A DNA stretch of 64,000 nt from Minisyncoccota bacterium (GTDB taxonomy: Bacteria > Patescibacteriota > Minisyncoccia > UBA6257 > JAGOQP01): contig JBAYIV010000001.1 of NCBI GenBank assembly GCA_041665445.1, positions 6,334 to 70,333 on the forward strand, in the 5' to 3' direction. Of this stretch, positions 4,858-58,641 are shown piece by piece. The notes beneath the pieces are model-generated. The model saw only the letters and a list, made by a program, of their open reading frames with translations, made no database searches and was not told the DNA's origin. Each line of letters starts with the position of its first letter. Position 1 is the first letter of the stretch. The translations under genes and the position numbers were made by a program.

Positions 4858-5769
4858 ATGTCCGCCATACAATCCCATCTCAAAGACTATCTGGACTATC
4901 TGGAAATAGAAAAAAACCGATCCCCCAAAACTGTGGACAACTATCGGCGGTATCTTGAGGCATTTATTACCGAAGAAAAAATTGCATCAGTGAGCAACCT
5001 CACCAACGATGCCATTCGGCGTTTTCGCATCACGCTCTCGCGCAAAATCGTCGACGGCCAGCCGCTTAAAAAAATCACCCAGAACTACTACGTAATCGCG
5101 ATACGCAATTTTCTCAAATTCCTCATCAAGCGCAACATCACACCTCCGGTTCTTCCGGACCAAATTGAGCTCCCCAAAATCCCCCAACGGCAGATTGATA
5201 TCATGGACTACGCTGACCTGGAACGATTTTTGTCGGGTCCGTCGGGCGATTCTCTGCGCGCGCTGCGCGACCGCGCGCTTTTGGAAACATTGTTTTCCAC
5301 CGGCCTGCGCGTCTCCGAACTCTGTTCGCTATCGCGCTACATTGATCTGGAGCGGGGTGAAACAACAATCCGCGGCAAAGGAAGTAAGTTGCGCGTCATC
5401 TTTTTTTCCGATCGCGCCACGACCGCCGTGCGCGCCTATTTGGATAAGCGCGGTGATGCCGAAGAAGCACTCTTCGTCAGTCTATCAAAAGCAAAAAATC
5501 CCAAGGTCATCGGCCCCATCATTCCCCGCACCGTCCAGCGGCTGGTGCAACTCTATGCCCACAAAGCCGGCATCCTGGGCACGGTAACGCCCCATCAATT
5601 GCGCCATCAGTTTGCCACCGACCTGCTCATGAACGGCGCCGACATCCGTTCGGTCCAGGCGCTCTTGGGACACGCCAACATTTCAACCACGCAGATGTAT
5701 ACCCACGTCACCAACCGCGAACTTAAAAATATCCACGACGCATTCCACGGCAAGCGCCGCGCAAAATAA
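4858..5769 (+). CDS. XerC/XerD-family tyrosine site-specific recombinase, 303 aa
   Basis: N-terminal core-binding domain (LKDYLDYLEIEKNRSPKTVDNYRRYLEAF). Catalytic C-terminus …HQLRHQFATDLLMNGADIRSVQALLGHANISTTQMYTHV with the R…HxxR…Y motif order. Confidence 0.9.
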   Translation: MSAIQSHLKDYLDYLEIEKNRSPKTVDNYRRYLEAFITEEKIASVSNLTNDAIRRFRITLSRKIVDGQPLKKITQNYYVIAIRNFLKFLIKRNITPPVLPDQIELPKIPQRQIDIMDYADLERFLSGPSGDSLRALRDRALLETLFSTGLRVSELCSLSRYIDLERGETTIRGKGSKLRVIFFSDRATTAVRAYLDKRGDAEEALFVSLSKAKNPKVIGPIIPRTVQRLVQLYAHKAGILGTVTPHQLRHQFATDLLMNGADIRSVQALLGHANISTTQMYTHVTNRELKNIHDAFHGKRRAK

Positions 5770-12237: not shown

Positions 12238-13209
12238 TTACGCCTCCATAACGCGCAACGGCTTGGGGCGGTTGAGAGGCGCCCCTTTTCCCTTTTTGAG
12301 ACGAAGAAACGAGTGGGGACCGCCGCCGCCCAGACGCTCGACAATCTTGCTATCCACCATATGCTGAATATCGTACCGCAACGTCCGCTCGCTCACCCCC
12401 GGAAGATTTTCTGCCACATCCCTAAGCGTTGAGTAGGTTTTACGCGAAAGTTGCTCAATAATGACCGCGTGCCGCTTATCTGCGGTCATTGCCGGATTGC
12501 GCTTTGAATTGCCGGATTGTGCAGAGACAAGAGATGTTTCCTCGCTTATGGCGGCAACAGCATCGCGTACCGCATTGCCGGACTCTTTGCCGGATTCTTT
12601 GCCGATATGATTTTCTGTCGCGATAGAATCCCCCGTTTTCTCTCTATATATAGAGAGAACATCATTGCCGGATCCAACGGTTGCCATTGCCGGACTTTCG
12701 TGCGTCGCAACGGACTGTGTGGAAGAAACTTCGTTTTGTTTCTGATTGTCAGTTGACGCACTATCCGCGGCAGTCGTTTGCGTACGCGCCTTACCCATAC
12801 TATCGGCGATTATCCCCATGAAGTCAGCCAACAACATCGGCGGTCGTGAAAAGATTCCATCGATTGATGGCTCCTGGGTACGATCCGCTCGCTCTCGAGA
12901 ATCGGGCAGTGAAGCATTGCGGGCATCGGCCGCTCCCCGTTCACGCAACTCAAGAATGGCGGCGCGCAATGTTCCTGTTTCGCGCAAAAGAACACCGGCG
13001 TTGGTTTTGCCGATTTCGCCGATATTGGCAGCGAGACGCACCGTCTCCTCTAAAGCATCGAGGGTAGCAATGTCCCGAACAACAAAGTAGTCCAGGGCGC
13101 GATCTTCCAGCGTCTGGCGAAGCTTGGGGCGCGAAACATATTCGGCCACCCGAAAAACAGCCCATACCACCTCAAACGAACGCTGATTGAAGAACTCTGA
13201 TGAATACAT
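12238..13209 (-). CDS. Putative transcriptional regulator with a C-terminal DeoR/HTH_11-like winged helix and a low-complexity Ser/Gly/Asn linker, 323 aa
   Basis: C-terminus …RHAVIIEQLSRKTYSTLRDVAENLPGVSERTLRYDIQHMVDSKIVERLGGGGPHSF resembles a DeoR-type HTH. The N-terminal helical domain is unassigned. Confidence 0.55.
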   Translation of the reverse strand: MYSSEFFNQRSFEVVWAVFRVAEYVSRPKLRQTLEDRALDYFVVRDIATLDALEETVRLAANIGEIGKTNAGVLLRETGTLRAAILELRERGAADARNASLPDSRERADRTQEPSIDGIFSRPPMLLADFMGIIADSMGKARTQTTAADSASTDNQKQNEVSSTQSVATHESPAMATVGSGNDVLSIYREKTGDSIATENHIGKESGKESGNAVRDAVAAISEETSLVSAQSGNSKRNPAMTADKRHAVIIEQLSRKTYSTLRDVAENLPGVSERTLRYDIQHMVDSKIVERLGGGGPHSFLRLKKGKGAPLNRPKPLRVMEA

Positions 13210-13599
13210 AGGTGACGCACTCCGCTAAGTGCTTTCCAAGGTAAACCAAATAACACCACACGTCAAGAAAAAACATCCCCCCAAATGCCAACGCCAACAG
13301 GATCCCGCGGTCTGATTTCCCGCCACACGTCGTCGCTGGTCTTTGCGGCATCACCCACAGACATTTTCCGGCACCATTTCTGCAACAACCCCTGCAAGGC
13401 ACCCCAACATTACGCGAATGATTTCCACCAGTGCCCCCCCACAAAAAACACTTCAACCCTGCACCAATGTTTTCCGCCAACGCCCCACTCCTCGCAAAGT
13501 ATCTCCTCGCCTCAAAAATATTTCCCCGTCTTCAAAACATCTCCTCATCTCAAGGGCACCCATCCTTCTCCAAAGCATTTCCTTGTCTCAAAAACACCT

Positions 13600-13651
13600 C
13601 CCCTGTGGATAACTGTTTCTGACGATCGTCAGAAACAGTTATCCACAGGGG
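13600..13651. promoter_or_regulatory. 52-bp perfect palindrome containing two inverted consensus DnaA boxes (TGTGGATAA … TTATCCACA), preceded by degenerate CTCAAAAA-type direct repeats
   Basis: cCCCTGTGGATAACTGTTTCTGACGATCGTCAGAAACAGTTATCCACAGGGg. Located about 65 bp upstream of the PaaX-like gene and in the divergent intergenic region with the 12238..13209 regulator. Confidence 0.6.
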
Positions 13652-13714
13652 GCAAAGATTTAAACGATCTTCCACGCAATGCGCCAGACAGCATTTTAAA
13701 CAACGATCGAAGCA

Positions 13715-14422
13715 ATGCCGAAAGTTGACCAAAAAACATATAAAAATTTCCAAACCATGCGGGTTCAAAAAATCTTACCGCCGACAATAACCTACGCCCC
13801 GGAAGCGAACAAAACGGCCACGATTCTTTCTACGATTGGCGACTTCGGCGTTGAATGTTGTGACTTAGCAATGGCAGTGCTTATCGCCGGATATGGTGCA
13901 TCCCCAGCGCGCGTAGCAATTGTCAAAGATCGAATGCACAATCGACGAATATGCGCACAACACGATCACGCCCATACCCGCCAATGCATGCGAAGATATC
14001 GCGCCATGGTAAAAAAACTGGAGGAACAGAATCTCATCAAAAAAGAAACGAGAAAAAAGAAACTATTTTTGTGCCTCACCCAACAGGGGAAAAATTATTT
14101 AACAAAGATACGACGACACGAACAAGCCGTGCAATCACACAAAACACAAACCTATGCACGAGCACGATGGATATTAATCGTTTTTGATATTCCGGAAGGA
14201 AAGCGCGACAAACGAGCATGGCTGCGAGCAACGCTTATCACGATGGAATTTATCATGATACAAAAAAGTGTTTGGATGGGAAAATTGATCCTCCCTCGAT
14301 CGTTCATCGATGATCTTCGCGAACAAGAGATACACACCTACGTTCAAATTCTTGAGATTACTAAACGTGGGACGATAGAATGCGTGGGAAGAAAAACAGC
14401 CTGCACGGCCATCGCGCAGTGA
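13715..14422 (+). CDS. PaaX-like transcriptional regulator (N-terminal wHTH plus Cas2-fold-like C-terminal domain), 235 aa; start uncertain
   Basis: wHTH-like …MVKKLEEQNLIKKETRKKKLFLCLTQQGKNYL. C-terminal WILIVFDIPEGKRDKRAWLRATLITMEFIMIQKSVWMG matches the PaaX C-domain pattern (W.lv.FdlPe…R..LR..L…GF…Q.SVW). No SD seen at any candidate start. Confidence 0.45.
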   Translation: MPKVDQKTYKNFQTMRVQKILPPTITYAPEANKTATILSTIGDFGVECCDLAMAVLIAGYGASPARVAIVKDRMHNRRICAQHDHAHTRQCMRRYRAMVKKLEEQNLIKKETRKKKLFLCLTQQGKNYLTKIRRHEQAVQSHKTQTYARARWILIVFDIPEGKRDKRAWLRATLITMEFIMIQKSVWMGKLILPRSFIDDLREQEIHTYVQILEITKRGTIECVGRKTACTAIAQ

Positions 14423-49428: not shown

Positions 49429-50144
49429 ATGTTCTGCGACGTTTGTATCTTTCTATTGATAATAATTTGCTGGACAGTCGAGAACGCTGAGGTGGTCAAC
49501 CAATAAAGCGCCACCGCCGACGGCAACGACCACAAAATAACCACCGAAAGCAATGGTCCCATGTACATCATTTGGCGCCCCATGCGCTCGGCCATAGACA
49601 GCTCACTCCCCCTTTTCCCGCTTCGTCCAGCCGCCTTAAGCAGGAAATATGACTGCAGATATTGAAACACCGCGGCCAGAACCACCAACACCACGCTACG
49701 CGAACTTAAATCAAAGAGCCCGATAAAATGATAATTAATACTCGCCGGAAGATGGACGAATGAATACAACAACGACACGTCAACATTTTTTAACCCGCGC
49801 AAAAAAACACCATACAGCGCGATGAGAATTGGCAGCTGGATGATAATAAAAAGAAAGCCGGAAAAGGGGTTGACGCGGTGCTCTTTATACACCGCCATAA
49901 TTTCTTTTACTTGTCGCTCTTTGTCTTCCTTGTGTATTTTTTGAAGTTCCTGAATGCGTGGCGCTATTTTTTGAAGAATAGTTTGATCTTTGGCGCTTTT
50001 ATAGAAAAGCGGCAAGAGTACAAAACGGACAATGAGGGTAAGCAAAACAATGGCCACCCCCAAGTCAGCATAAATATTATTATATAAAAAAAATAGGAGG
50101 TTTAATAACGGGCGGTAAAGAAATTGGGTGTAGATATATATCAT
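49425..50144 (-). CDS. yidC: Membrane protein insertase YidC/Oxa1 (short form), 239 aa
   Basis: 5 TM helices. Conserved …LLPLFYKSAKDQTILQKIAPRIQELQKIHKEDKERQVKEIMAVYKEHRVNPFSG…. Confidence 0.9.
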   Translation of the reverse strand: MIYIYTQFLYRPLLNLLFFLYNNIYADLGVAIVLLTLIVRFVLLPLFYKSAKDQTILQKIAPRIQELQKIHKEDKERQVKEIMAVYKEHRVNPFSGFLFIIIQLPILIALYGVFLRGLKNVDVSLLYSFVHLPASINYHFIGLFDLSSRSVVLVVLAAVFQYLQSYFLLKAAGRSGKRGSELSMAERMGRQMMYMGPLLSVVILWSLPSAVALYWLTTSAFSTVQQIIINRKIQTSQNI

Positions 50145-50147
50145 GGT

Positions 50148-50519
50148 CTAGTTGGTGATATCAGTGCCCCACTGATCCAGCGCGGCGGCTCTCCCTGGAC
50201 GCGCGCAATCCGCAAATTTTTTTTTAACAACAACCACCACGTCATTGCCGGAACGCGACCACCCATGGCAACAACGCACATATTCATACACCGCTCTCCT
50301 TATGTGTGTGCGCACCACGGCCCGCGCGGCAACTTTTTTAGAGACCACCGCCGCAAACCGACCGTACGAACGCGACGACGGATACCGTCGAACAACAAAA
50401 AAATCATTTTCCCTCTTGGGTAACGGTGAGAGGGGGATTTTTTTAAAAAACGCCGCGGATAGACGATAACGTTTTGCGAGCATGCGCGGGTTGGAAACAA
50501 GCTCCACCCGCATACGCAT
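50148..50519 (-). CDS. rnpA: RNase P protein component RnpA (start may be an internal Met, giving about 111 aa)
   Basis: …LAKRYRLS…FGRFAAVVSKKVAARAVVRTHIRRAVYEYVR… is a basic RnpA-like sequence. Sits between rpmH and yidC. Confidence 0.85.
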   Translation of the reverse strand: MRMRVELVSNPRMLAKRYRLSAAFFKKIPLSPLPKRENDFFVVRRYPSSRSYGRFAAVVSKKVAARAVVRTHIRRAVYEYVRCCHGWSRSGNDVVVVVKKKFADCARPGRAAALDQWGTDITN

Positions 50520-50534
50520 AGCGGAGCTTGTTGT

Positions 50535-50669
50535 TTACGCCGTAAGGCGCTTGCGCCCTTTAGCGCGACGGCGCGAGAGTACGCGACGCCCGGTTGGTGT
50601 GGCGGATCGCTTCAAAAAACCATGTGTTTTTTTACGCTTCCGCTTTTTAGGCTGGAATGTTAACGACAT
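50535..50669 (-). CDS. rpmH: 50S ribosomal protein L34
   Basis: [44 protein letters not shown]. Start trimmed from the ORF-track start. Confidence 0.9.
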
Positions 50670-50918
50670 GGGGTCACCATAACAAAACCACCGCCAAAAA
50701 GCAACCGGTGCACACACCTAAGTGCCTGTGGATAACCAAATCAAGTCATTACAATAATTAACTTTTAAAACCACCCCAATGAAAAGACGCCTTAAAATAA
50801 GCCGCTTAGGAGAAATACACAGGTTGTGCACAGATTGCTTTGTTGGTGGACTTTCTTTTGTTTTTTCTTTCATCTAGAATGCTGGCAACGCGCCACAAGC
50901 ATCACCCTTTCAAAATAC
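50670..50918. promoter_or_regulatory. rpmH/dnaA divergent intergenic region with a perfect DnaA box (cctgTGTGGATAAcc, about 50727-50735); candidate oriC part or dnaA autoregulatory site
   Basis: The consensus 9-mer TGTGGATAA is present. Both divergent promoters must lie here. Confidence 0.45.
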
Positions 50919-52289
50919 ATGGACTTAAAAAATGCGTGGGAAAAGACGCTTTCGGAGATAGAACTCCAAATATCAAAACCAAACTTTTTGACATGGTTTA
51001 AAAACAGCCGCCTTATTAAAAAAGACGACACTACCGGTACGGTGGTGGTGGGGGTGGCAAATAATTTTGCGAAAGAGTGGATTCGAAATAAATATCACAA
51101 AACCATTCTTGAGCTTTTACAAAAATCAGACCAGGGCATCTGCCGCATCGAATACATCGTGCTCGCCGGCGACGCGGAGGAAAAGTTATTTACCGCAATT
51201 AAAAAAGATCCCGATCGAATTGCTCAACAGGAGGGCATTTTTGAGTTGTCAGTTGATCCAGAAAGCAACCTGCATCCGCGCTACAATTTTAAAAGTTTTG
51301 TTGTCGGCTCATCAAACGAGCTGGCATACGCGGCATCAATGGCGGTTGCGCGAGACGTGGGGAAAAAATATAATCCCCTCTTTATTTATGGGGGGACGGG
51401 GCTGGGGAAAACCCACCTCATACAAGCCATTGGCAATGAAATTATTAAAACCTATCGTAATCGCGTGAAAGTAAAATATGTCCCCTCTGAGCGTTTTGTA
51501 AATGATGTCATTTGGGCCATCCGCTCAAAGCGAACCGAGGACATCAAAAATAAATACCGCACCATTGACGTTCTTATTATCGACGATATTCAGTTTATCG
51601 GCGGAAAGCCCGCGAGCGAAGAAGAGTTTTTTCACACATTCAACATCCTGCATCAAAACAATAAACAAATTATCATTTCTTCCGATCGTCCCCCCGCCGC
51701 GATCCCCACACTCGAAGAGCGTCTTCGGTCACGCTTTGAGGGCGGGATGATTGTCGATGTTTCCTTCCCTGATTATGAGATGAAAATGGCAATTATTAAA
51801 AACAAGGTTCAAGACAAGGGATTTGAGCTCTCGGATAGCGTGTGCCATGTTATTGCCTCAAAAATACAAAGAAACATCAGGGAAATAGAGGGGATTATTA
51901 ATAAATTGTATTTCTATAAAGAAATTAAAAACACTCCCATTGACGTGAAAGTTGCCGAGGACATCATCAACGCAACCATTCAACAAAGCGCGGCCAACAT
52001 TAACCCAAACCAAATTCTTAAGTCGGTGGCTTCGTTTTTTGAAGTCTCTCAAAATGATCTTATTACCTCGTCGCGACGCAAAGAAATCGTTCTTCCGCGA
52101 CAAGTGGTTATGTTTTTGATGCGGGATATGTTGGGGATGTCTTATCCGGACATTGGGGATAAGCTGGGGAAGCGCGATCACACCACCGCGATACACTCTT
52201 TTGAAAAAATAGCGCGTGAAATAACCACCGATCGAATGTTAAATCAAAAAATTATCCTTATTAAAGAATTAATCAATAAAAATCCTTAA
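50919..52289 (+). CDS. dnaA: Chromosomal replication initiator DnaA (about 456 aa)
   Basis: Start trimmed to MDLKNAWEK. AAA+ Walker A …GGTGLGKTHL…. C-terminal DNA-binding domain …ITSSRRKEIVLPRQVVMFLMRDMLGMSYPDIGDKLGKRDHTTAIHS…. Confidence 0.95.
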   Translation: MDLKNAWEKTLSEIELQISKPNFLTWFKNSRLIKKDDTTGTVVVGVANNFAKEWIRNKYHKTILELLQKSDQGICRIEYIVLAGDAEEKLFTAIKKDPDRIAQQEGIFELSVDPESNLHPRYNFKSFVVGSSNELAYAASMAVARDVGKKYNPLFIYGGTGLGKTHLIQAIGNEIIKTYRNRVKVKYVPSERFVNDVIWAIRSKRTEDIKNKYRTIDVLIIDDIQFIGGKPASEEEFFHTFNILHQNNKQIIISSDRPPAAIPTLEERLRSRFEGGMIVDVSFPDYEMKMAIIKNKVQDKGFELSDSVCHVIASKIQRNIREIEGIINKLYFYKEIKNTPIDVKVAEDIINATIQQSAANINPNQILKSVASFFEVSQNDLITSSRRKEIVLPRQVVMFLMRDMLGMSYPDIGDKLGKRDHTTAIHSFEKIAREITTDRMLNQKIILIKELINKNP

Positions 52290-52432
52290 CACAGGATTTC
52301 CTTCTTTTTCCACAAAGTTATACACATGCACTTTATTAAAAAAACCCTTATTTTCCTTTAAGATCTCACCACTATCCACTATCCACAGGCACTACTACTC
52401 CTACTACTATTTATATTTATATATAAGAACAC
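52290..52432. promoter_or_regulatory. dnaA-dnaN intergenic region with tandem DnaA-box-like repeats (CCACTATCCACTATCCACAGG) followed by an AT-rich tract (TATTTATATTTATATATAAG); candidate oriC unwinding region
   Basis: Two TATCCAC(A) 8/9 matches in tandem, about 30 bp upstream of a roughly 25-bp stretch that is more than 85% AT, directly before the dnaN start. Confidence 0.5.
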
Positions 52433-53554
52433 ATGAACATCGTCATACTAAAAAACAACATTAAAGAGGGACTTGCTATTATTGCCGGGGCGCACAAAGA
52501 AGGCTCTCACTTGCCGGTGCTGAAAAATTTTCTTTTCGTTGCCCATAATGACGTGGTGCAGCTCACTTCGACTGATTTGGAACTTGCGATGCAGTATACT
52601 GTTTCGGCAAAAATTATTAATGACGGCAGTATTGCTATTCCTTTTTCCATATTCTCTCAAATTATCAGCAATCTTTCTTCTGAGCGAATAAGTTTTGAAC
52701 ACAAAGGATCATCGCTTCTCGTGGTGAGTGATAATTATAAAGCAAAAATAACAACCGCTAACACCGATGAATATCCGATCATTCCAGTAATTGAAGATGG
52801 AAAAGCTCAACAATTCACTTTCGACCCAGATGCATTTATTGATGGATTGGCGGCGGTTTCATCGGCGTGTCAAATATCGGACATCCGGCCGGAATTAAGC
52901 GGAGCGTATGTCTCGTACAAGGGCGGTGTGTTGAAGTTTGTTGCGACTGACAGTTTTCGGCTCGCTGAAAAAATAGTTTCAGAAAAAAAATACGAAACAA
53001 CGCTTACTACAGATATCGCGTGTATTATTCCGCTCAAAACAATCCAAGAAGTTGTGCGTGTTTTTTCTCTTAAAAAAGACGGAAAAATTACCATGCGGTT
53101 TGACGATCATCAAATAGAATTTAAAACCGAACACATTTCAATTATTTCAAGACTTATTGAGGGAAAGTTTCCTGACTACAGCGTTATTATTCCGGGTCAA
53201 TTTTCAACCGAGGTGGTTTTAAAAACGAGCGATGTTATCGCGGCGGTGAAAGTAACGAGCTCGCTTTCGAATCGATTGCATGAGGTGAAGTTTGTTATTG
53301 ATGATACGTTGAAAAATATTCAAATCATTTCAATGAGTCAGGAGTTTGGTGAGAGCGAATATATTCTTCCGGCAAAAATAAAAGGGCAAACAAACAAAAT
53401 AACTTTTAACTGGCGCTTTGTTCTTGATGGGCTTAAAAATATTAAAACAGAAAATGTTCTTATGGGATTTAACGGCGAGGACAAACCAACGGTTTTTAAA
53501 TCCCCCGACGATACACTGTTTCTTTATATTGTTATGCCAATTAAATCAGCGTAG
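52433..53554 (+). CDS. dnaN: DNA polymerase III β sliding clamp
   Basis: 373 aa with the three-domain β-clamp pattern. MNIVILKNNIKEGLAIIAGAH…. Immediately follows dnaA. Confidence 0.95.
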   Translation: MNIVILKNNIKEGLAIIAGAHKEGSHLPVLKNFLFVAHNDVVQLTSTDLELAMQYTVSAKIINDGSIAIPFSIFSQIISNLSSERISFEHKGSSLLVVSDNYKAKITTANTDEYPIIPVIEDGKAQQFTFDPDAFIDGLAAVSSACQISDIRPELSGAYVSYKGGVLKFVATDSFRLAEKIVSEKKYETTLTTDIACIIPLKTIQEVVRVFSLKKDGKITMRFDDHQIEFKTEHISIISRLIEGKFPDYSVIIPGQFSTEVVLKTSDVIAAVKVTSSLSNRLHEVKFVIDDTLKNIQIISMSQEFGESEYILPAKIKGQTNKITFNWRFVLDGLKNIKTENVLMGFNGEDKPTVFKSPDDTLFLYIVMPIKSA

Positions 53555-53555
53555 A

Positions 53556-53592
53556 CAAAAAACACCCTTAAAAATTTAAGGGTGTTTTTTGT
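53556..53592. terminator. Bidirectional rho-independent terminator between dnaN and the PBP gene
   Basis: AAAAA-ACACCCTTA-aaaatt-TAAGGGTGT-TTTTTT. Confidence 0.6.
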
Positions 53593-53616
53593 CACGGCAC
53601 ATTGCCGTTTTAGTGG

Positions 53617-55767
53617 TTAGTGATTATAGAGTGTTAAAAAATTTGGAATATTTTTTTCTGCCCACGAAACGACGCCAGTTTCCCATCCCTGAAACTGTGG
53701 GTCGTTGTTTGGGTTGTAGTTTGGGCCAGGGTCTTGTGTTGGGTTGTTTTTATCTTCGTAATACAAAATAGAATGAATCTGCGGGACGTTGGCCGTGCTT
53801 GTGGTGATATATTGTCCGTTAAGCATTGGTCGCGACGAGGTGAATGGGTCTGGTTGAACAAAAGACGGCGATTGAATGAGGGGAAGTGTTTTGTTCATGA
53901 ACGCGCTCCAAATAGGAACGGCAGCAAGGATACTCCCCCCGCTGCGTTGCATGGGCGTGTTGTTGTTGTTTCCTGCCCACACACCAACAGTTAGTGATGG
54001 GGTGTAGCCAACCGTCCATGCGTCACGATAGTCGTTGGTTGTTCCTGTTTTCATTGCCACGTCATACCCACTAAAGACGGTCTGTGACAAGCTCGCGCCA
54101 AAAAGAGGTGCGCGCAATGATGCGTCCGATAATATTTTATTTATAAGGCGTGGATATTCAGGCTCAAGAACTTGAGTGGCGACATCAATATGTTGTTCGA
54201 GGGTGTTATTGCGGCTGTCGTGCACGCTTTGAATAAAATATTGATCGTGCTTGGTTCCGTCGTTGGCAAAAACAGAGTAGGCCCCAACAAGATCAGTGAG
54301 ATGAACGCCGGCTCCACCGAGGACCAACGAGAGTCCGTATTGGCTTTTATCGGGATCACCCAACGTACCAATCCCCATTGATGCGGCGGTGCGAATGCTG
54401 TCGGGGATTCCCGCTAGATACAAAACCTTAACCGCGGGAACATTAATTGATTGTGCGAGAGCGTCTTTGAGCGACACGGGGCCTCGAAACGTGTGGTCAA
54501 AGTTTTGTGGGTGGAAGCAGGGATAACCACTGGCGTTTATAGACGAAAAGTCGGGGACGAGAGGGCATTGTGTTCGATCGGTCCCAAACTCAGTCGGTGT
54601 ATCAAAGACGATGGTGTCGGGTGTATACCCCTTTTCGAATGCCGTAACATATACAAATGGTTTGAAGGTTGATCCTGGTTGGCGAAGCCCATCGGCGGCA
54701 ACGTTGTAGTTGCCGTCAATACTGGTGCTGAAATAATCAGCCGATCCCACAAGGGCTTTAATGGCGCCCGTGGTTGGGTCTTGTGCCACCAGCGCCGCAT
54801 TTGACCCCTTATAAAGATCTTTGTTGCGTGCAGCGCCATCAGCGACGGCTTGCTCGGCATTCTTTTGCATCGCAACGTCAAGCGTGGTGACCACAGTCAA
54901 TCCGCCGTTTTCAACAACGGCTTCGCCGTAAGTGTTCTCTAAATAGTTCTTGACCATCATCACAAAATGTGGTGCTTGAATAGATCCAATGTTTTGAGAA
55001 AGAAAAGTGAGTTTTTCGTCGCGGGCCTGCGCATACTGTTGTTCGGTGATTGATCCTATTGATCGCATCTGGTTAAGGACATACGCGGTGCGCTCCTTGA
55101 GTTTGTCGACGTGCTGCCCCCACGGCGAATAGTATGATGGCGCCTGGACAACCGCGGCAAGGGTTGCGGCTTGTGCGATTGAAAGCGCGCTTGCGTCGAC
55201 GCCGAAAAAGCGTTGGCTGGCCGCCTGTATTCCTGATGCGTTGTACCCAAAAGGAATCTGATTCAGGTACATAGTAAGGATGTCGTCCTTTGAATAATGT
55301 TGTTCTATCCAATAGGCAAGGATTAATTCTTTCACCTTGCGCTCGATTGTTTTTTGAGAAGTGAGGAAAACATTTTTAACCAACTGCTGGGTGATGGTTG
55401 ACCCTCCTTGTACAAATTCTCGGTGCCACAAATCAACTAACGCAGCGCGAAAAGTTCCTTTGATATCAAGCACAGGGTGTTGATAAAAGTTTTGATCTTC
55501 GGCGGCGATGATGGCTTCTTTAATGTAGGGAGAAATAAGATCGCCAGAAACAACCGTTCTGTTGTCTCCGCCGATTTGATATAACAAAACTTTGCCGGTT
55601 GTGTCGTAAATTTTTGTAGATTGCGCTTGTGCAAAATCGGTTATCTTTTCCGGATGGGGAAGGTCTTTGAGAATGCGAAGAAGCTCCAAGGAGCCGGCAA
55701 TTAAGATGAGCAGTACAATAATTGCTATGCCTAAAAATATCTTTTTTTTCCGCGATTTATTTTTCAT
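53617..55767 (-). CDS. Class A penicillin-binding protein (GT51 transglycosylase + transpeptidase), 716 aa
   Basis: N-terminal TM. GT51 motifs …AIIAAEDQNFYQHPVLDIKG…GGSTITQQLVKN…. Transpeptidase motifs …SGSTFKPF…, S.N, KTGT(T). Confidence 0.9.
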   Translation of the reverse strand: MKNKSRKKKIFLGIAIIVLLILIAGSLELLRILKDLPHPEKITDFAQAQSTKIYDTTGKVLLYQIGGDNRTVVSGDLISPYIKEAIIAAEDQNFYQHPVLDIKGTFRAALVDLWHREFVQGGSTITQQLVKNVFLTSQKTIERKVKELILAYWIEQHYSKDDILTMYLNQIPFGYNASGIQAASQRFFGVDASALSIAQAATLAAVVQAPSYYSPWGQHVDKLKERTAYVLNQMRSIGSITEQQYAQARDEKLTFLSQNIGSIQAPHFVMMVKNYLENTYGEAVVENGGLTVVTTLDVAMQKNAEQAVADGAARNKDLYKGSNAALVAQDPTTGAIKALVGSADYFSTSIDGNYNVAADGLRQPGSTFKPFVYVTAFEKGYTPDTIVFDTPTEFGTDRTQCPLVPDFSSINASGYPCFHPQNFDHTFRGPVSLKDALAQSINVPAVKVLYLAGIPDSIRTAASMGIGTLGDPDKSQYGLSLVLGGAGVHLTDLVGAYSVFANDGTKHDQYFIQSVHDSRNNTLEQHIDVATQVLEPEYPRLINKILSDASLRAPLFGASLSQTVFSGYDVAMKTGTTNDYRDAWTVGYTPSLTVGVWAGNNNNTPMQRSGGSILAAVPIWSAFMNKTLPLIQSPSFVQPDPFTSSRPMLNGQYITTSTANVPQIHSILYYEDKNNPTQDPGPNYNPNNDPQFQGWETGVVSWAEKNIPNFLTLYNH

Positions 55768-55848
55768 ACAAATTTAGTCCAGCATATCACATCGTCCATT
55801 GATTAAAAAACACCCCCCAAAAACTGGGAGGTGTTCTGTGGGTGTGTT

Positions 55849-56085
55849 TTAGGCGCCCTCTTCGTTGTCGCCGTATGCATCAGCGTCATCGTATGCATCA
55901 GCGTCATCTTCGTCGAGCTCATCCTCCTCCTCTTCTCCGCCCTCTATAAAATCCTCCTCGTTAAAATCGTCGCTCTCTTTTTCCTCCTCTTCGCCTGCGT
56001 CATCGTTGGTTGAGTTGGTCGCGCTCATTGCGCCAACTTCTTCGGATAAATCGTCTTGATTCTTTTTTTGTTTTGTGGCGAGCAT
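55849..56085 (-). CDS. Small, extremely acidic (Asp/Glu-rich) protein, about 79 aa; start uncertain
   Basis: …DDAGEEEEKESDDFNEEDFIEGGEEEEDELDEDDADAYDDADAYGDNEEGA. Co-oriented with its neighbours. No clear SD, and the opposite-strand ORF is Ser-rich low complexity. Confidence 0.35.
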   Translation of the reverse strand: MLATKQKKNQDDLSEEVGAMSATNSTNDDAGEEEEKESDDFNEEDFIEGGEEEEDELDEDDADAYDDADAYGDNEEGA

Positions 56086-56200
56086 AAGGATTTGATTAAA
56101 TAAAACCTGCGTTGTTTTTGTGGTGTGTGTCATACAAACGTGGCTCACAAACGCGTTATTGTTTTTTAATGTCTCCACTATACTCAAAAGACTTTGTTTG

Positions 56201-56716
56201 TCAACGCGTCGCAAGTTGTGGCGGGCGTTGATGGGTGTAGCCAGCCGACAGTGCGATTGCGAGGGCGTCGTATGCATCGTCTGGCTGGTGAATGTCGTCG
56301 ATGCCAAGGGTTATGCGCACCATTTTTTCGATGGCTTTTTTGTCAGCCCCCCCATCTCCCGCGATCATCTGCTTTATCTCCTTTGGGGTGAATTCGTATA
56401 TGGGCAAGTGTTGTTGTGCACACGAAAGAAGAAGGACGCCCCGTGACTGAGCAACCTCGAGTCCCGTTTTCATATTGTTCACAAAAAAAAGCTTTTCAAT
56501 CCCTATAATGGCCGGCGTTGTTTGTTTGAGTAGTTTTTTAAACGAGACATCTAAATCAGCCAGAAGCATATTTTTGTCCCGTTGTTTTGTTGCGATGATG
56601 CCGGCGGTTATATAGTGGGGCGTTCTGCCGCTAAACACAACAACACCGTATCCAGCCCGAGTACTTCCCGGATCTATACCAAGCACGATTATGTCTTTTG
56701 ATGGAACGCTAGTCAT
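56201..56716 (-). CDS. ruvC: Crossover junction endodeoxyribonuclease RuvC
   Basis: …IIVLGIDPGSTRAGYGVV… gives the catalytic Asp in an RNase H-like fold. …DDAYDALAIALS…. Start trimmed to MTSVPSKD. Confidence 0.9.
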   Translation of the reverse strand: MTSVPSKDIIVLGIDPGSTRAGYGVVVFSGRTPHYITAGIIATKQRDKNMLLADLDVSFKKLLKQTTPAIIGIEKLFFVNNMKTGLEVAQSRGVLLLSCAQQHLPIYEFTPKEIKQMIAGDGGADKKAIEKMVRITLGIDDIHQPDDAYDALAIALSAGYTHQRPPQLATR

Positions 56717-57251
56717 TTTCTTGTTGTGGTTGCGCGGTTGTGTAAACGTCATCAACATCATCGTGGTCGTCAAGAGCCTCCACGAGATTGTTCATTGTTT
56801 CCGTGGTTTCTTGAGACGTTTCTTGTGGGAACTTTGCAACCCACCCATCGTCGCTTTTGTTAAATGCCCACAAAACACTTCCGGGATCAGCCCACTTCCC
56901 GTGGTGGTCGGCGATTATTTTTTTTATTTCAGCAACGGTTCGATTTCTGCTGTTTGTGGTTGCGGTGATAATTATCGCGATTCCATCAGGTCCATATCCC
57001 TCTAAAATAAGGCAATCCAAGTCTTTTGCCTCACTTGATTTTTTAATAGCGCGATCGATGTTGTCTTTGGGGACATTGTTTTCTTGGGCGCGCTCAATGG
57101 CGGCGCGCAAAGAGGCGTTCCTCGATGGATCAGGATCGTTTTGAGCCATAACCGATATTGCGCGTAAAAACTTTGAGAACATCTGACTTCTCTTTTTGTC
57201 GGTTATCTCCTTCTTCCGTTTGATCTGCGCCCATTTGTTGTGTCCTGACAT
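56709..57251 (-). CDS. yebC: YebC/PmpR-family probable transcriptional regulator (short form)
   Basis: MSGHNKWAQIKRKKEITDKKRSQMFSKFLRAI… is the typical YebC N-terminus. Canonical neighbour of ruvC. Confidence 0.85.
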   Translation of the reverse strand: MSGHNKWAQIKRKKEITDKKRSQMFSKFLRAISVMAQNDPDPSRNASLRAAIERAQENNVPKDNIDRAIKKSSEAKDLDCLILEGYGPDGIAIIITATTNSRNRTVAEIKKIIADHHGKWADPGSVLWAFNKSDDGWVAKFPQETSQETTETMNNLVEALDDHDDVDDVYTTAQPQQEND

Positions 57252-57343
57252 GTTTAAAAACAATAACAACGCATTTTAAAACCATAAGGGTACCATAAGA
57301 CGAGCATATATTAAAAAATTAAAAATACGTTTGTTTTTAAAAG

Positions 57344-57862
57344 CTAAAAAATATTCGTGTAATATCTTAATGATATACAATTATCTAATAACGTTATAGC
57401 CGCAAGATCGAGGCGGTATCCATTCGTTCCAATGAGTTTGTCATATTTATTTGCATACCATTCAGATATTTTTTTAAAATTGCCGATCTTTTTGGACGAC
57501 ATTTGGTCTTCTGGCGTAAAATCAATTTCGTTTGCAATCAATGATTGCCGGATGTATTTGTTTACGTTGCCGAACAGAAGTGGATAACTTTCTTCATATG
57601 GTTTCTCTTTGTCTTTCCTCTCATCCATGGTCTTAACCTCCAAAAAAATCAAGGTTTTATCTGATGATTTGGCGACAATGTCGAGCTCGCCGAATTTCGT
57701 AGAAAAATTTCTTTCTATTATTTTTAAACCGATATACTCAAGATATCCACAGCAGATATTCTCGCCAAATTGCCCAACTTTTTGCCGCTCTGTTTTGTGG
57801 CTGCCATCCATGATTTTTATGGGATATATTAAATTATACCCCATAAATTTATTTTGTTCCAA
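57344..57862 (-). CDS. YraN/UPF0102-family (PD-(D/E)xK) endonuclease-like protein with an insertion, 172 aa; low-GC gene
   Basis: …GENICCGYLEYIGLKIIERNFSTKFGELDIVAKSSDKTLIFLEVKT…RLDLAAITL… matches the YraN pattern (GE..A..yL…G…I..RN…GEIDlIa…FVEVKtR…RfDviav). Confidence 0.55.
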   Translation of the reverse strand: MEQNKFMGYNLIYPIKIMDGSHKTERQKVGQFGENICCGYLEYIGLKIIERNFSTKFGELDIVAKSSDKTLIFLEVKTMDERKDKEKPYEESYPLLFGNVNKYIRQSLIANEIDFTPEDQMSSKKIGNFKKISEWYANKYDKLIGTNGYRLDLAAITLLDNCISLRYYTNIF

Positions 57863-57910
57863 TGAATTTTTTGTTTGCCGGATTAAATTGTTTTGCTAAC
57901 TGGTCGGCTT

Positions 57911-57999
57911 TTTAATAAAAATGTTTCACGTGAAACATTTTTATTAAAATCAGTTAGAAAATTGATGATTTTAAATGTTTCACGTGAAACATTTAAAAT
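57911..57999. promoter_or_regulatory. Two perfect palindromic operator-like sites sharing the 20-bp core AATGTTTCACGTGAAACATT (38-bp palindrome at about 57911-57948; 30-bp palindrome at about 57970-57999), about 55 bp centre-to-centre; two further direct TGTTTCAC half-sites at about 58057-58077
   Basis: TTTAATAAAAATGTTTCAC|GTGAAACATTTTTATTAAA and TTTTAAATGTTTCAC|GTGAAACATTTAAAA lie in the AT-rich divergent intergenic region between the yraN-like gene and gene 58390. Confidence 0.55.
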
Positions 58000-58389
58000 T
58001 GGATTTTTGTAAAAGAGTAGATTTTAAGCCATAATTGAGCTTACTGTGTTTTAAAATGTTTCACACTTTTGTTTCACGCTGTTAAAACACTAGGTTTAAT
58101 GAGCCAATTCAACAACGGCTCAAATCCTATGTATTTCAGAAACATTCTTTTGGTTTTTTAATGATGAGTATTTATGGGCTGGTTGACTTGAGCGATAAAT
58201 ACTATCTTTTTCTTTTGAATAACAAAAAGATGTCCACGTGGTTTGTCGCGGCGATTGCCGGACTTATTATTTTTGTTTTCTGATTTTTTAGTCGCCGTGT
58301 GCGCTTATTCTTTTAGTTGTCTTGGTGTTATACTAAAAAAAGTACGCTGTCTTTGTTGTGTCGCGTCTATCGGCGCAGAGGAGGACTAG

Positions 58390-58641
58390 ATGAATATTGC
58401 GGAATGTGTTGGTGATGTGATTGTTTTCCAGTGTGGCAACAAAACAAGAAACAACATCGACCCCCCGCTTGACCCAGGTCGATTTTATCGCGCGACCATC
58501 CATGGGGTGGTTGAGAAAAAGGGAGACCTGCTTCTCGCTCTTTGGTTTGTCAGTTATCATCATGGCGGAGCAGATCTCTGTCCCCATGACCGCTTAACTC
58601 TTTACTTGTCGGATCTGATTTTTTGGAGGGTTTGGCCTTAG
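58390..58641 (+). CDS. Hypothetical small protein, 83 aa
   Basis: Good SD (GAGGAGG, 6-nt spacer) before the ATG. No family recognised. Confidence 0.45.
   Translation: MNIAECVGDVIVFQCGNKTRNNIDPPLDPGRFYRATIHGVVEKKGDLLLALWFVSYHHGGADLCPHDRLTLYLSDLIFWRVWP

Follow-up and report, generated by a model that had tools for sequence, protein, structure and literature searches.

In a window of 64,000 nucleotides (the whole 64-kb stretch of DNA that was analysed) from a Candidate Phyla Radiation (CPR) bacterium, a long perfect palindrome lies between two divergently transcribed genes, directly ahead of one that encodes a PaaX-like protein. The features of the locus, together with the replication genes found further along the window, are listed below by position.

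12238-13209, minus strand: divergent left neighbour encoding a 323-aa protein, with a weak C-terminal HTH_DeoR match
13440-13599, no strand: degenerate 19-nt periodic C/A-rich tract that abuts the palindrome (autocorrelation, repeat search)
13600-13651: perfect 52-bp palindrome, with left arm 13600-13625 (cccctgtggataactgtttctgacga) and right arm 13626-13651 (tcgtcagaaacagttatccacagggg)
13604-13647, no strand: conserved 44-bp unit TGTGGATAACTGTTTCTGACGATCGTCAGAAACAGTTATCCACA, a putative operator
13604-13612, minus strand: exact DnaA-box 9-mer at the outer end of the left arm, TTATCCACA on this strand
13623-13628, no strand: CGATCG core at the centre of the palindrome, within TGACGATCGTCA, also the invariant centre of the family palindromes
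13639-13647, plus strand: exact DnaA-box 9-mer TTATCCACA at the outer end of the right arm
13715-14422, plus strand: winged-helix (wHTH) plus Cas2-fold (PaaX_M) gene, the presumed cognate regulator (Pfam, Foldseek)
50826-52289: dnaA (Pfam)
52433-53554: dnaN (Pfam)

The structure described in the initial annotation was borne out by the repeat search, in which the two arms of 26 nt each were 100% complementary with no gap and centred on CGATCG. The exact DnaA box in each arm, the distance of 37 kb to dnaA and the identity of the flanking genes also held, the left one with its HTH_DeoR match and the right one PaaX_M/Cas2-like with its start at 13715 (or 13757). The probability of one perfect 52-bp palindrome arising by chance in 64 kb is about 1e-11, and the 52 bp folded as single-stranded DNA reached -28.5 kcal/mol (z = -10). 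From a comparison of copies, the cross-copy conserved unit was found to span 44-46 bp, (c)TGTGGATAA...TTATCCACA(g), and the outer CCCC/GGGG extension was present in the window copy alone. Beyond the palindrome pair, the window contains only a third exact DnaA box, at 50727 upstream of dnaA; if one mismatch is allowed, the nearest further boxes lie at 12810 and 18191, and none was found within about 790 bp of the palindrome. The distance from the palindrome centre to ATG 13715 of the PaaX-like gene is 90 bp.

It was noted that the 390 bp before the palindrome (13210-13599) are C/A-rich and G-poor on the plus strand (C147 A109 T81 G53; G only 14%), and the last 160 bp of this stretch show a periodic degenerate unit, CCyyGTCTCAAAAAyAyyT, with phased A-runs. 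Direct repeats with a 20-nt period had been reported here; repeats do exist, as none of 1000 shuffles matched the periodicity, but they are weak and recur every 19 nt (autocorrelation of 0.48 and 0.45 at lags of 19 and 38, respectively). The repeat search found three copies at 70-79% identity, and Tandem Repeats Finder reported nothing for the tract. No 19-nt periodic tract was seen beside the other palindrome copies in the flank comparison. The stretch 13210-13599 could represent curved DNA or sites for the divergent 323-aa protein. A sigma-70 scan gave one promoter-like match (9/12, minus strand, 13721-13693), and by eye no convincing promoter was placed for the window PaaX-like gene or for the pilin genes described below.

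The downstream gene starts at 13757 in GenBank (WC246_00095, 221 aa; the match is 100% identical). Its product matched Pfam PF20803 PaaX_M (E=3.6e-12; 46.7 bits with a cut-off of 24) and Cas2 (E=3e-6), and the AlphaFold model (pLDDT 76) consists of a winged helix followed by a beta-alpha-beta-beta-alpha-beta domain. The best Foldseek match in the PDB was E. coli W PaaX (8a39; probability 1.0, E=3e-3), with many Cas2 structures and Rv0674 next, and a PDB sequence search by family profile returned nothing significant. The protein gave no Pfam match to PaaX_C, the C-terminal ligand domain, it ends about 70 residues past the start of the Cas2-like domain in the alignment, and it scored 20.2 bits on the TIGR02277 PaaX equivalog model, which has a cut-off of 264.55. 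The window protein is PaaX-like in architecture but is not PaaX. No paa genes were found beside the palindrome, where the neighbours encode an MFS transporter, FtsK, a PG-binding protein and similar products. The nearest non-self homologues are 29-42% identical and are often annotated as 'Cas2' in their sources, and the homologue search found no orthologue of the regulator above 42% identity. Across the family alignment the N-terminal half is variable and the C-terminal half is highly conserved, with the Cas2 signature hhhFDIPE..RR..W.R..L...F...Q.SVW.G and an invariant Asp.

We assembled 80 homologous loci (L001-L080) from species-representative genomes, all of them Patescibacteria (other Paceibacteria), with several genomes giving more than one paralogue. 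A strong palindrome was located no more than 400 bp upstream of the gene start in 59 of the 80 loci, and about 57 of those 59 were centred on [AG]CG[AG][TC]CG[TC], usually 17-130 bp from the start. Counted by gene, about 57 of 70 evaluable family members have their own 35-50-bp palindrome upstream, and the family as a whole contains 133 such palindromes across 73 loci. The (A)CGATCG(T) core is invariant and the outer arms are locus-specific. In the half-site matrix, ACGA occupies positions -4 to -1 in 96-116 of 118 half-sites, preceded by T(G/C) at -6/-5, and the outer sequence is variable and G-poor. The arms are related among orthologues in conserved synteny (e.g. L041 and L076) and differ among paralogues of one genome.

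We also found that about 55 of the 80 loci possess two near-identical palindromes bracketing the gene, the first ahead of the start and the second 15-180 bp beyond the stop; the two have their locus-specific arms in common, and their centres are 622-826 bp apart (e.g. 3898 and 4619 in L013, 3950 and 4610 in L031, 3928 and 4599 in L044). Looping, a roadblock, a second promoter or a recombination site are conceivable roles for the downstream copy. Past the second palindrome, the next gene runs in the same direction in 32 loci and is convergent in 28, and the neighbours are diverse housekeeping genes. Because the neighbours are diverse and the orientation of the next gene is mixed, the palindrome bracket belongs to the family gene itself. 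The window locus is atypical in having one palindrome and not two (no second flanking palindrome was found at its PaaX-like gene), arms about 5 bp longer, and a centre 90 bp from the start as compared with 28-50 bp. A longer wHTH-Cas2 linker that might account for the longer arms was looked for in the alignment and not found.

Other genes recur beside members of the family. A XerC/D-like tyrosine recombinase (Phage_integrase plus a SAM-like N domain) immediately adjoins the family gene in about 12 of the 80 loci (L002, L004, L006, L009, L010, L011, L018, L020, L024, L029, L049 and L060); arm sequences differ among these loci, and the XerC/D-like gene of the window, at 4858-5769, is 8 kb off. 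The proximity might come from common ancestry or from a link in function. Another paralogue group adjoins clpP (L022, L042). In L007 (4616-5342) and L008 (3660-4482), an opposite-strand LexA/HTH_11-like winged-helix gene (150-167 aa) is bracketed by the second and third copies of the locus-specific palindrome.

The window 44-mer was also encountered outside its own locus. A metagenome scan with the pattern TGTGGATAA-N(4-16)-CGATCG-N(4-16)-TTATCCACA returned 25 stretches, eight of which, on six contigs of JGI Ga0172379, carry the 44-mer (seven exact and one with a single mismatch). A ninth Ga0172379 copy, with a degenerate right arm, was found elsewhere in L101. Seven of these nine copies lie 24-130 bp upstream of start codons, and their settings are as follows.

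Four copies: 75-120 bp upstream of type IV pilin paralogues with the prepilin N-methylation motif
One copy: 75 bp upstream of an M48 protease gene
One copy: about 100-130 bp upstream of an ABC transporter gene
One copy (degenerate): 24 bp upstream of murC
One copy: between convergent rplI and rpmA
One copy: after a galE-like gene

The remaining pattern matches were set aside as unrelated, being mostly high-GC and non-palindromic (L082 and similar), with L102 adjoining dnaA/dnaN and L087/L093 representing a multi-box cluster. This cluster (L087 4546-4663 and L093 10-100, from Ga0272443/Ga0272441, GC 0.48) comprises 5-7 DnaA boxes, including TGTGGATAAC-TCACGATCGTGA-ACCAG-TTATCCACA, and a family-type core palindrome sits between two of its boxes.

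The source contig was extended beyond the window (JBAZBN010000001.1, GCA_041671465.1, a Candidatus Paceibacterota (CPR) MAG), and a second identical 44-mer was found on it, about 19.7 kb to the left of the copy in the window; it precedes a type IV pilin gene (MSVSSPKSFTLIELLIV...) by 87 bp. That pilin gene (L110 18476-18796, left of the window) carries its prepilin leader twice (KSFTLIELLIV ... SSFTLIELLIVIG) and extends to the end of the contig, which suggests either that pilin paralogues were collapsed during assembly or that the gene is truly duplicated internally. Immediately to the right of the window, the contig holds a tandem array of eight T4SS_pilin/TrbC-like genes of 116-139 aa (L108 89-3403), with no palindrome copy nearby.

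We compared the five pilin-promoter copies in all ten pairs and found 0/44 differences in the 44-mer, as against 37% pooled divergence over 91 adjacent ungapped positions. The 26 bp between the boxes were as invariant as the boxes themselves in the copy comparison, and no target-site duplications were visible in the copy flanks. The absence of differences in the site against 37% divergence in its flanks points to purifying selection on every base at old, diverged promoters, and not to a mobile repeat that has spread recently. The initial annotation would have taken absence of the palindrome from related genomes as a sign that it has no selected function; this was not what we observed, as the 44-mer is kept unchanged in about ten other places whose flanks have diverged. 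A tblastn search of the family protein against the Ga0172379 stretches carrying the site recovered no cognate gene, and a tblastx search of the same stretches against the window recovered no genes in common.

The symmetry of the family palindromes was then examined by distance from the centre. It amounts to 88-100% at positions 1-4 and 9-17, drops to 75-86% at positions 5-8, and is at chance level beyond about position 20. Mismatches of the G:T type, which would be G:U in RNA, are equally frequent on both strands (75 vs 73). This symmetry profile, together with the strand-equal mismatches, agrees with a dimeric protein that reads the core and two outer blocks on duplex DNA, and not with a strand-specific RNA hairpin. 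Between the paired palindromes of one locus, changes in both arms were compensating at 69 positions and non-compensating at 38. Loci with more similar outer arms tend to have more similar wHTH domains (Mantel r=0.16, p=0.0005), a small effect that is confounded by phylogeny; no such correlation was seen for the Cas2 domain (Mantel r=0.06, p=0.06). Mean identity in the family is 30% for the wHTH vs 51% for the Cas2-like domain. The direction of the covariation would match a variable wHTH reading the variable arms, with the conserved Cas2-fold domain paired with the core.

The palindrome, its association with the gene throughout the family, its recurrence at promoters and its strong conservation are direct observations. 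From these sequence patterns we consider it probable that the palindrome is the operator of the PaaX-like wHTH-Cas2-fold regulator, autoregulatory at this locus and shared with pilin and a few other promoters. The downstream protein would act as a 'mini-PaaX' homodimer, with an N-terminal winged helix and a Cas2-fold dimerisation domain and without the PaaX C-terminal ligand domain. Its Cas2-fold dimer would sit over the invariant ACGATCGT centre, and the two winged helices would reach the outer arm blocks TGTGGATAA and TTATCCACA, which are separated by 26 bp, in the manner of E. coli PaaX on its own site. Bound upstream of its own gene, the protein would regulate itself; the 44-bp sites before type IV pilin paralogues, the M48 protease, the ABC transporter and murC would make up its regulon in this lineage. 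Which protein binds the palindrome, with what sign it regulates and how the two domains divide the labour are the parts of this scheme that we infer. The initial annotation had suggested an operator shared by both divergent regulators. The operator survives, attached to the downstream PaaX-like gene and a wider regulon, but its sharing with the 323-aa gene does not, since that gene starts 390 bp from the palindrome and no homologue of its product was found beside any other family gene.

The closest precedent is PaaX itself. The E. coli protein recognises TGATTC(N27)GAATCA and acts as a repressor of its own promoter (PMC9493321), and the window site similarly has inverted half-sites, TGTGGATAA-N26-TTATCCACA compared with N27, upstream of the regulator's own gene. 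Both proteins place an N-terminal winged helix before a Cas2-like central domain. However, the family proteins are 221-235 aa long as compared with about 305-316 for PaaX of the E. coli and Pseudomonas phenylacetate catabolon, and they do not have its phenylacetyl-CoA-binding C-terminal domain; nor does the window site have paa genes nearby. The window site is also fully palindromic with an invariant CGATCG centre, which the PaaX consensus as quoted does not specify, and family genes usually have a second palindrome copy after the stop codon, unlike PaaX. The literature that could be searched describes neither such a family nor such a class of palindromes for CPR bacteria. The truncated family, the invariant CGATCG core and the twin bracketing palindromes did not turn up there; the operator logic is PaaX-like.

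Several observations count against the operator reading. As noted above, the window locus is atypical for its family, the covariation signal is weak, no orthologue above 42% identity was found, and the Ga0172379 stretches yielded no family gene, so that the pairing of protein and site in that relative is only presumed. Operators normally vary at uncontacted positions, and complete identity over 44 bp across sites is unusual for a regulon. In addition, chance would rarely place an exact DnaA box in an arm (position-specific null, P about 2e-4), and another binder is possible. DnaA could be the relevant binder, alone or in competition with the PaaX-like protein, so that the site would serve as a promoter element for pilin and other genes or as a titrating sink; we hold this to be unlikely. 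Every copy has two exact consensus boxes, the conserved unit stops exactly at the outer box edges, and a canonical DnaA, complete with domain IV, is encoded in the genome. Of 266 half-sites in the family, none matches a DnaA box even with one mismatch allowed, and the DnaA-box identity of the outer blocks is thus a real feature specific to this lineage. It may reflect binding by DnaA or simply the sequence that the winged helix of this paralogue recognises. Exact boxes were also enriched just outside the palindromes of L007, L012 and L050 (3/10 exact boxes in 3.4% of the sequence; p=0.004).

On the other side, the 26 bp between the boxes are equally invariant, a conservation that DnaA does not need, and the core is ACGATCGT, as throughout the family. 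Family palindromes show no enrichment of one-mismatch boxes in their vicinity (4/137; p=0.68), and some of the 'boxes' beside other palindromes resemble extra copies of their own half-sites (TTATACA in L020, TATCC in L007/L050). We also considered the window arm as a plain family TATCC block and rejected this, as the block runs in the opposite orientation (GGATA inward in 1/266 half-sites). With only two boxes, each site is unlike datA, DARS and the B. subtilis clusters. Loci of the datA/DARS type are single loci that hold a cluster of several DnaA boxes (3-5 or more) and accessory sites. The window site shares with datA, with DARS1/2 of E. coli, with the B. subtilis clusters and with DnaA-regulated promoters the presence of exact consensus boxes in intergenic DNA away from the origin. 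It differs in that its two boxes are part of a larger invariant palindrome, multi-copy at promoters, in which no accessory features were identified. The suggestion of a datA/DARS-like titrating site accordingly finds no support in the number of boxes, in the equally invariant spacer or in the multi-copy placement.

The two binders might also share the site. A perfect consensus box is expected to bind DnaA in vitro, so competition with the regulator is plausible, and cross-talk with DnaA at the window palindrome is possible. We regard as unlikely, and put forward as speculation, a dual-use operator whose outer blocks have in this lineage been fixed as perfect DnaA boxes. Were this the case, the promoter of the regulator gene and those of the type IV pilin genes would be places of competition or cooperation between DnaA and the regulator, and the making of pili, which in an episymbiotic CPR bacterium serve host attachment and DNA uptake, would be coupled to replication status. 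With a dozen or more copies per roughly 1-Mb genome, most high-affinity DnaA boxes outside oriC would then belong to these sites. In a more radical reading, the Cas2-fold domain with its invariant Asp might act enzymatically on the CGATCG core of the twin palindromes around family genes.

An REP-like reading, in which the site is a dispersed palindrome and the wHTH-Cas2-fold gene its RAYT-like handler, with the invariant Asp of the Cas2 fold acting on the CGATCG core, seems to us very unlikely. As in REP/RAYT systems, the palindromes are dispersed, extragenic, multi-copy (2 on the source contig, 9 in Ga0172379) and identical between copies, one of them lying between the convergent rplI and rpmA. 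Across the family, in the roughly 55 loci noted above, a palindrome of the gene's own type stands on either side of it, whatever the neighbours and with the next gene in either orientation (32 co-directional, 28 convergent). The conserved Cas2 motif with its invariant Asp (hhhFDIPE..RR..W.R...Q.SVW.G) and the Xer-like recombinase adjoining about 12 of 80 family genes also speak for it. However, 9 of 11 copies lie at a consistent distance upstream of start codons, the copy number is apparently low, and the flanks of the copies are free of visible target-site duplications. At the pilin genes, the flanks are old and diverged and the site is intact. The associated protein has a wHTH and a Cas2 fold and is not an HUH/Y1 transposase, no conserved His-U-His (HUH/Y1) signature having been found in the family alignment or by Pfam, and the window gene has one flanking palindrome. 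Identity between paralogues of the same genome is no higher than 30-40%; their arms differ and their synteny is conserved, a pattern that indicates vertical descent and not recent mobility.

We consider it highly improbable that the palindrome acts as an RNA hairpin, whether in a terminator, in a small RNA or as a structure of the 5' UTR. Such a stem would have high stability, and the second palindrome of the family lies 15-180 bp after the stop codon. Nevertheless, no T-tract follows the palindrome on either strand, and the terminator scan placed no site there. Rfam, run on 12900-14100, gave only sub-threshold matches to plant and insect miRNAs, far below the gathering score. As described above, mismatches of the G:U type do not favour either strand (75 vs 73), and the middle of the supposed stem is its least symmetric part. 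Elsewhere in the window, a 19/20 palindrome centred at 53573 (53554-53593), right after dnaN, resembles a bidirectional terminator (aaaaaacaccctt...aagggtgtttttt).

That the palindrome marks a secondary or relic origin, or an integrated iteron-type replicon, is hardly credible: the 19-nt repeats, two DnaA boxes and palindrome before a winged-helix gene superficially resemble iteron plasmid origins, but there is no skew inflection at 13.6 kb, profile searches gave no Rep-family match, the surrounding genes are chromosomal housekeeping genes, and the other palindrome copies are without the 19-nt repeats. The cumulative GC skew falls steadily through 13.6 kb with no local inflection at the palindrome, and reaches its minimum and turns at 51-53 kb beside dnaA-dnaN. 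The putative oriC is the dnaA-dnaN spacer (52290-52432), which holds the boxes TTTTCCACA, TTATACACA and CTATCCACTATCCACA and an AT-rich run; no DnaA-box cluster beside an AT-rich element was found at 13.6 kb. The suggestion of a relic or secondary origin is refuted on these grounds, as the skew turn, dnaA, dnaN, the box cluster and the AT-rich stretch all coincide at 51-53 kb. It was noted that GC content is 40-45% around the origin region and downstream of dnaN (50000-58500), vs about 50% elsewhere. A perfect 20/20 palindrome centred at 57929 (window 57904-57955; arms ttaataaaaatgtttcac and gtgaaacatttttattaa) lies in a 40%-GC part of this region.

Returning to the reading of the palindrome as the operator of a PaaX-like regulator, one paralogue group deserves mention for its position. 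In L037, L041, L063, L074 and L076 the family gene, with arms TGTCAAGTATCTCACGA, lies directly upstream of grpE-dnaK, and a second palindrome is found about 80-110 bp upstream of grpE. The place upstream of grpE-dnaK is usually taken by hrcA. By analogy, this group may be a heat-shock regulator comparable to HrcA/CIRCE, since it occupies the hrcA position and has a palindrome ahead of grpE. Neither the fold of the protein nor the sequence of the palindrome is related to HrcA and CIRCE, and the analogy is one of position only.

To our knowledge, almost nothing is known of how bacteria of the Candidate Phyla Radiation, which do not grow on their own, regulate transcription. The sequences examined here point to a widespread regulator family, usually mis-annotated as 'Cas2', that would have a readable operator code made of an invariant CGATCG core and paralogue-specific arms. 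For one member of the family they give a concrete predicted regulon that includes type IV pilin genes, and they place one paralogue group in the usual position of hrcA before grpE-dnaK. The DnaA boxes at the ends of the operator raise the testable question of cross-talk between DnaA and a dedicated regulator.
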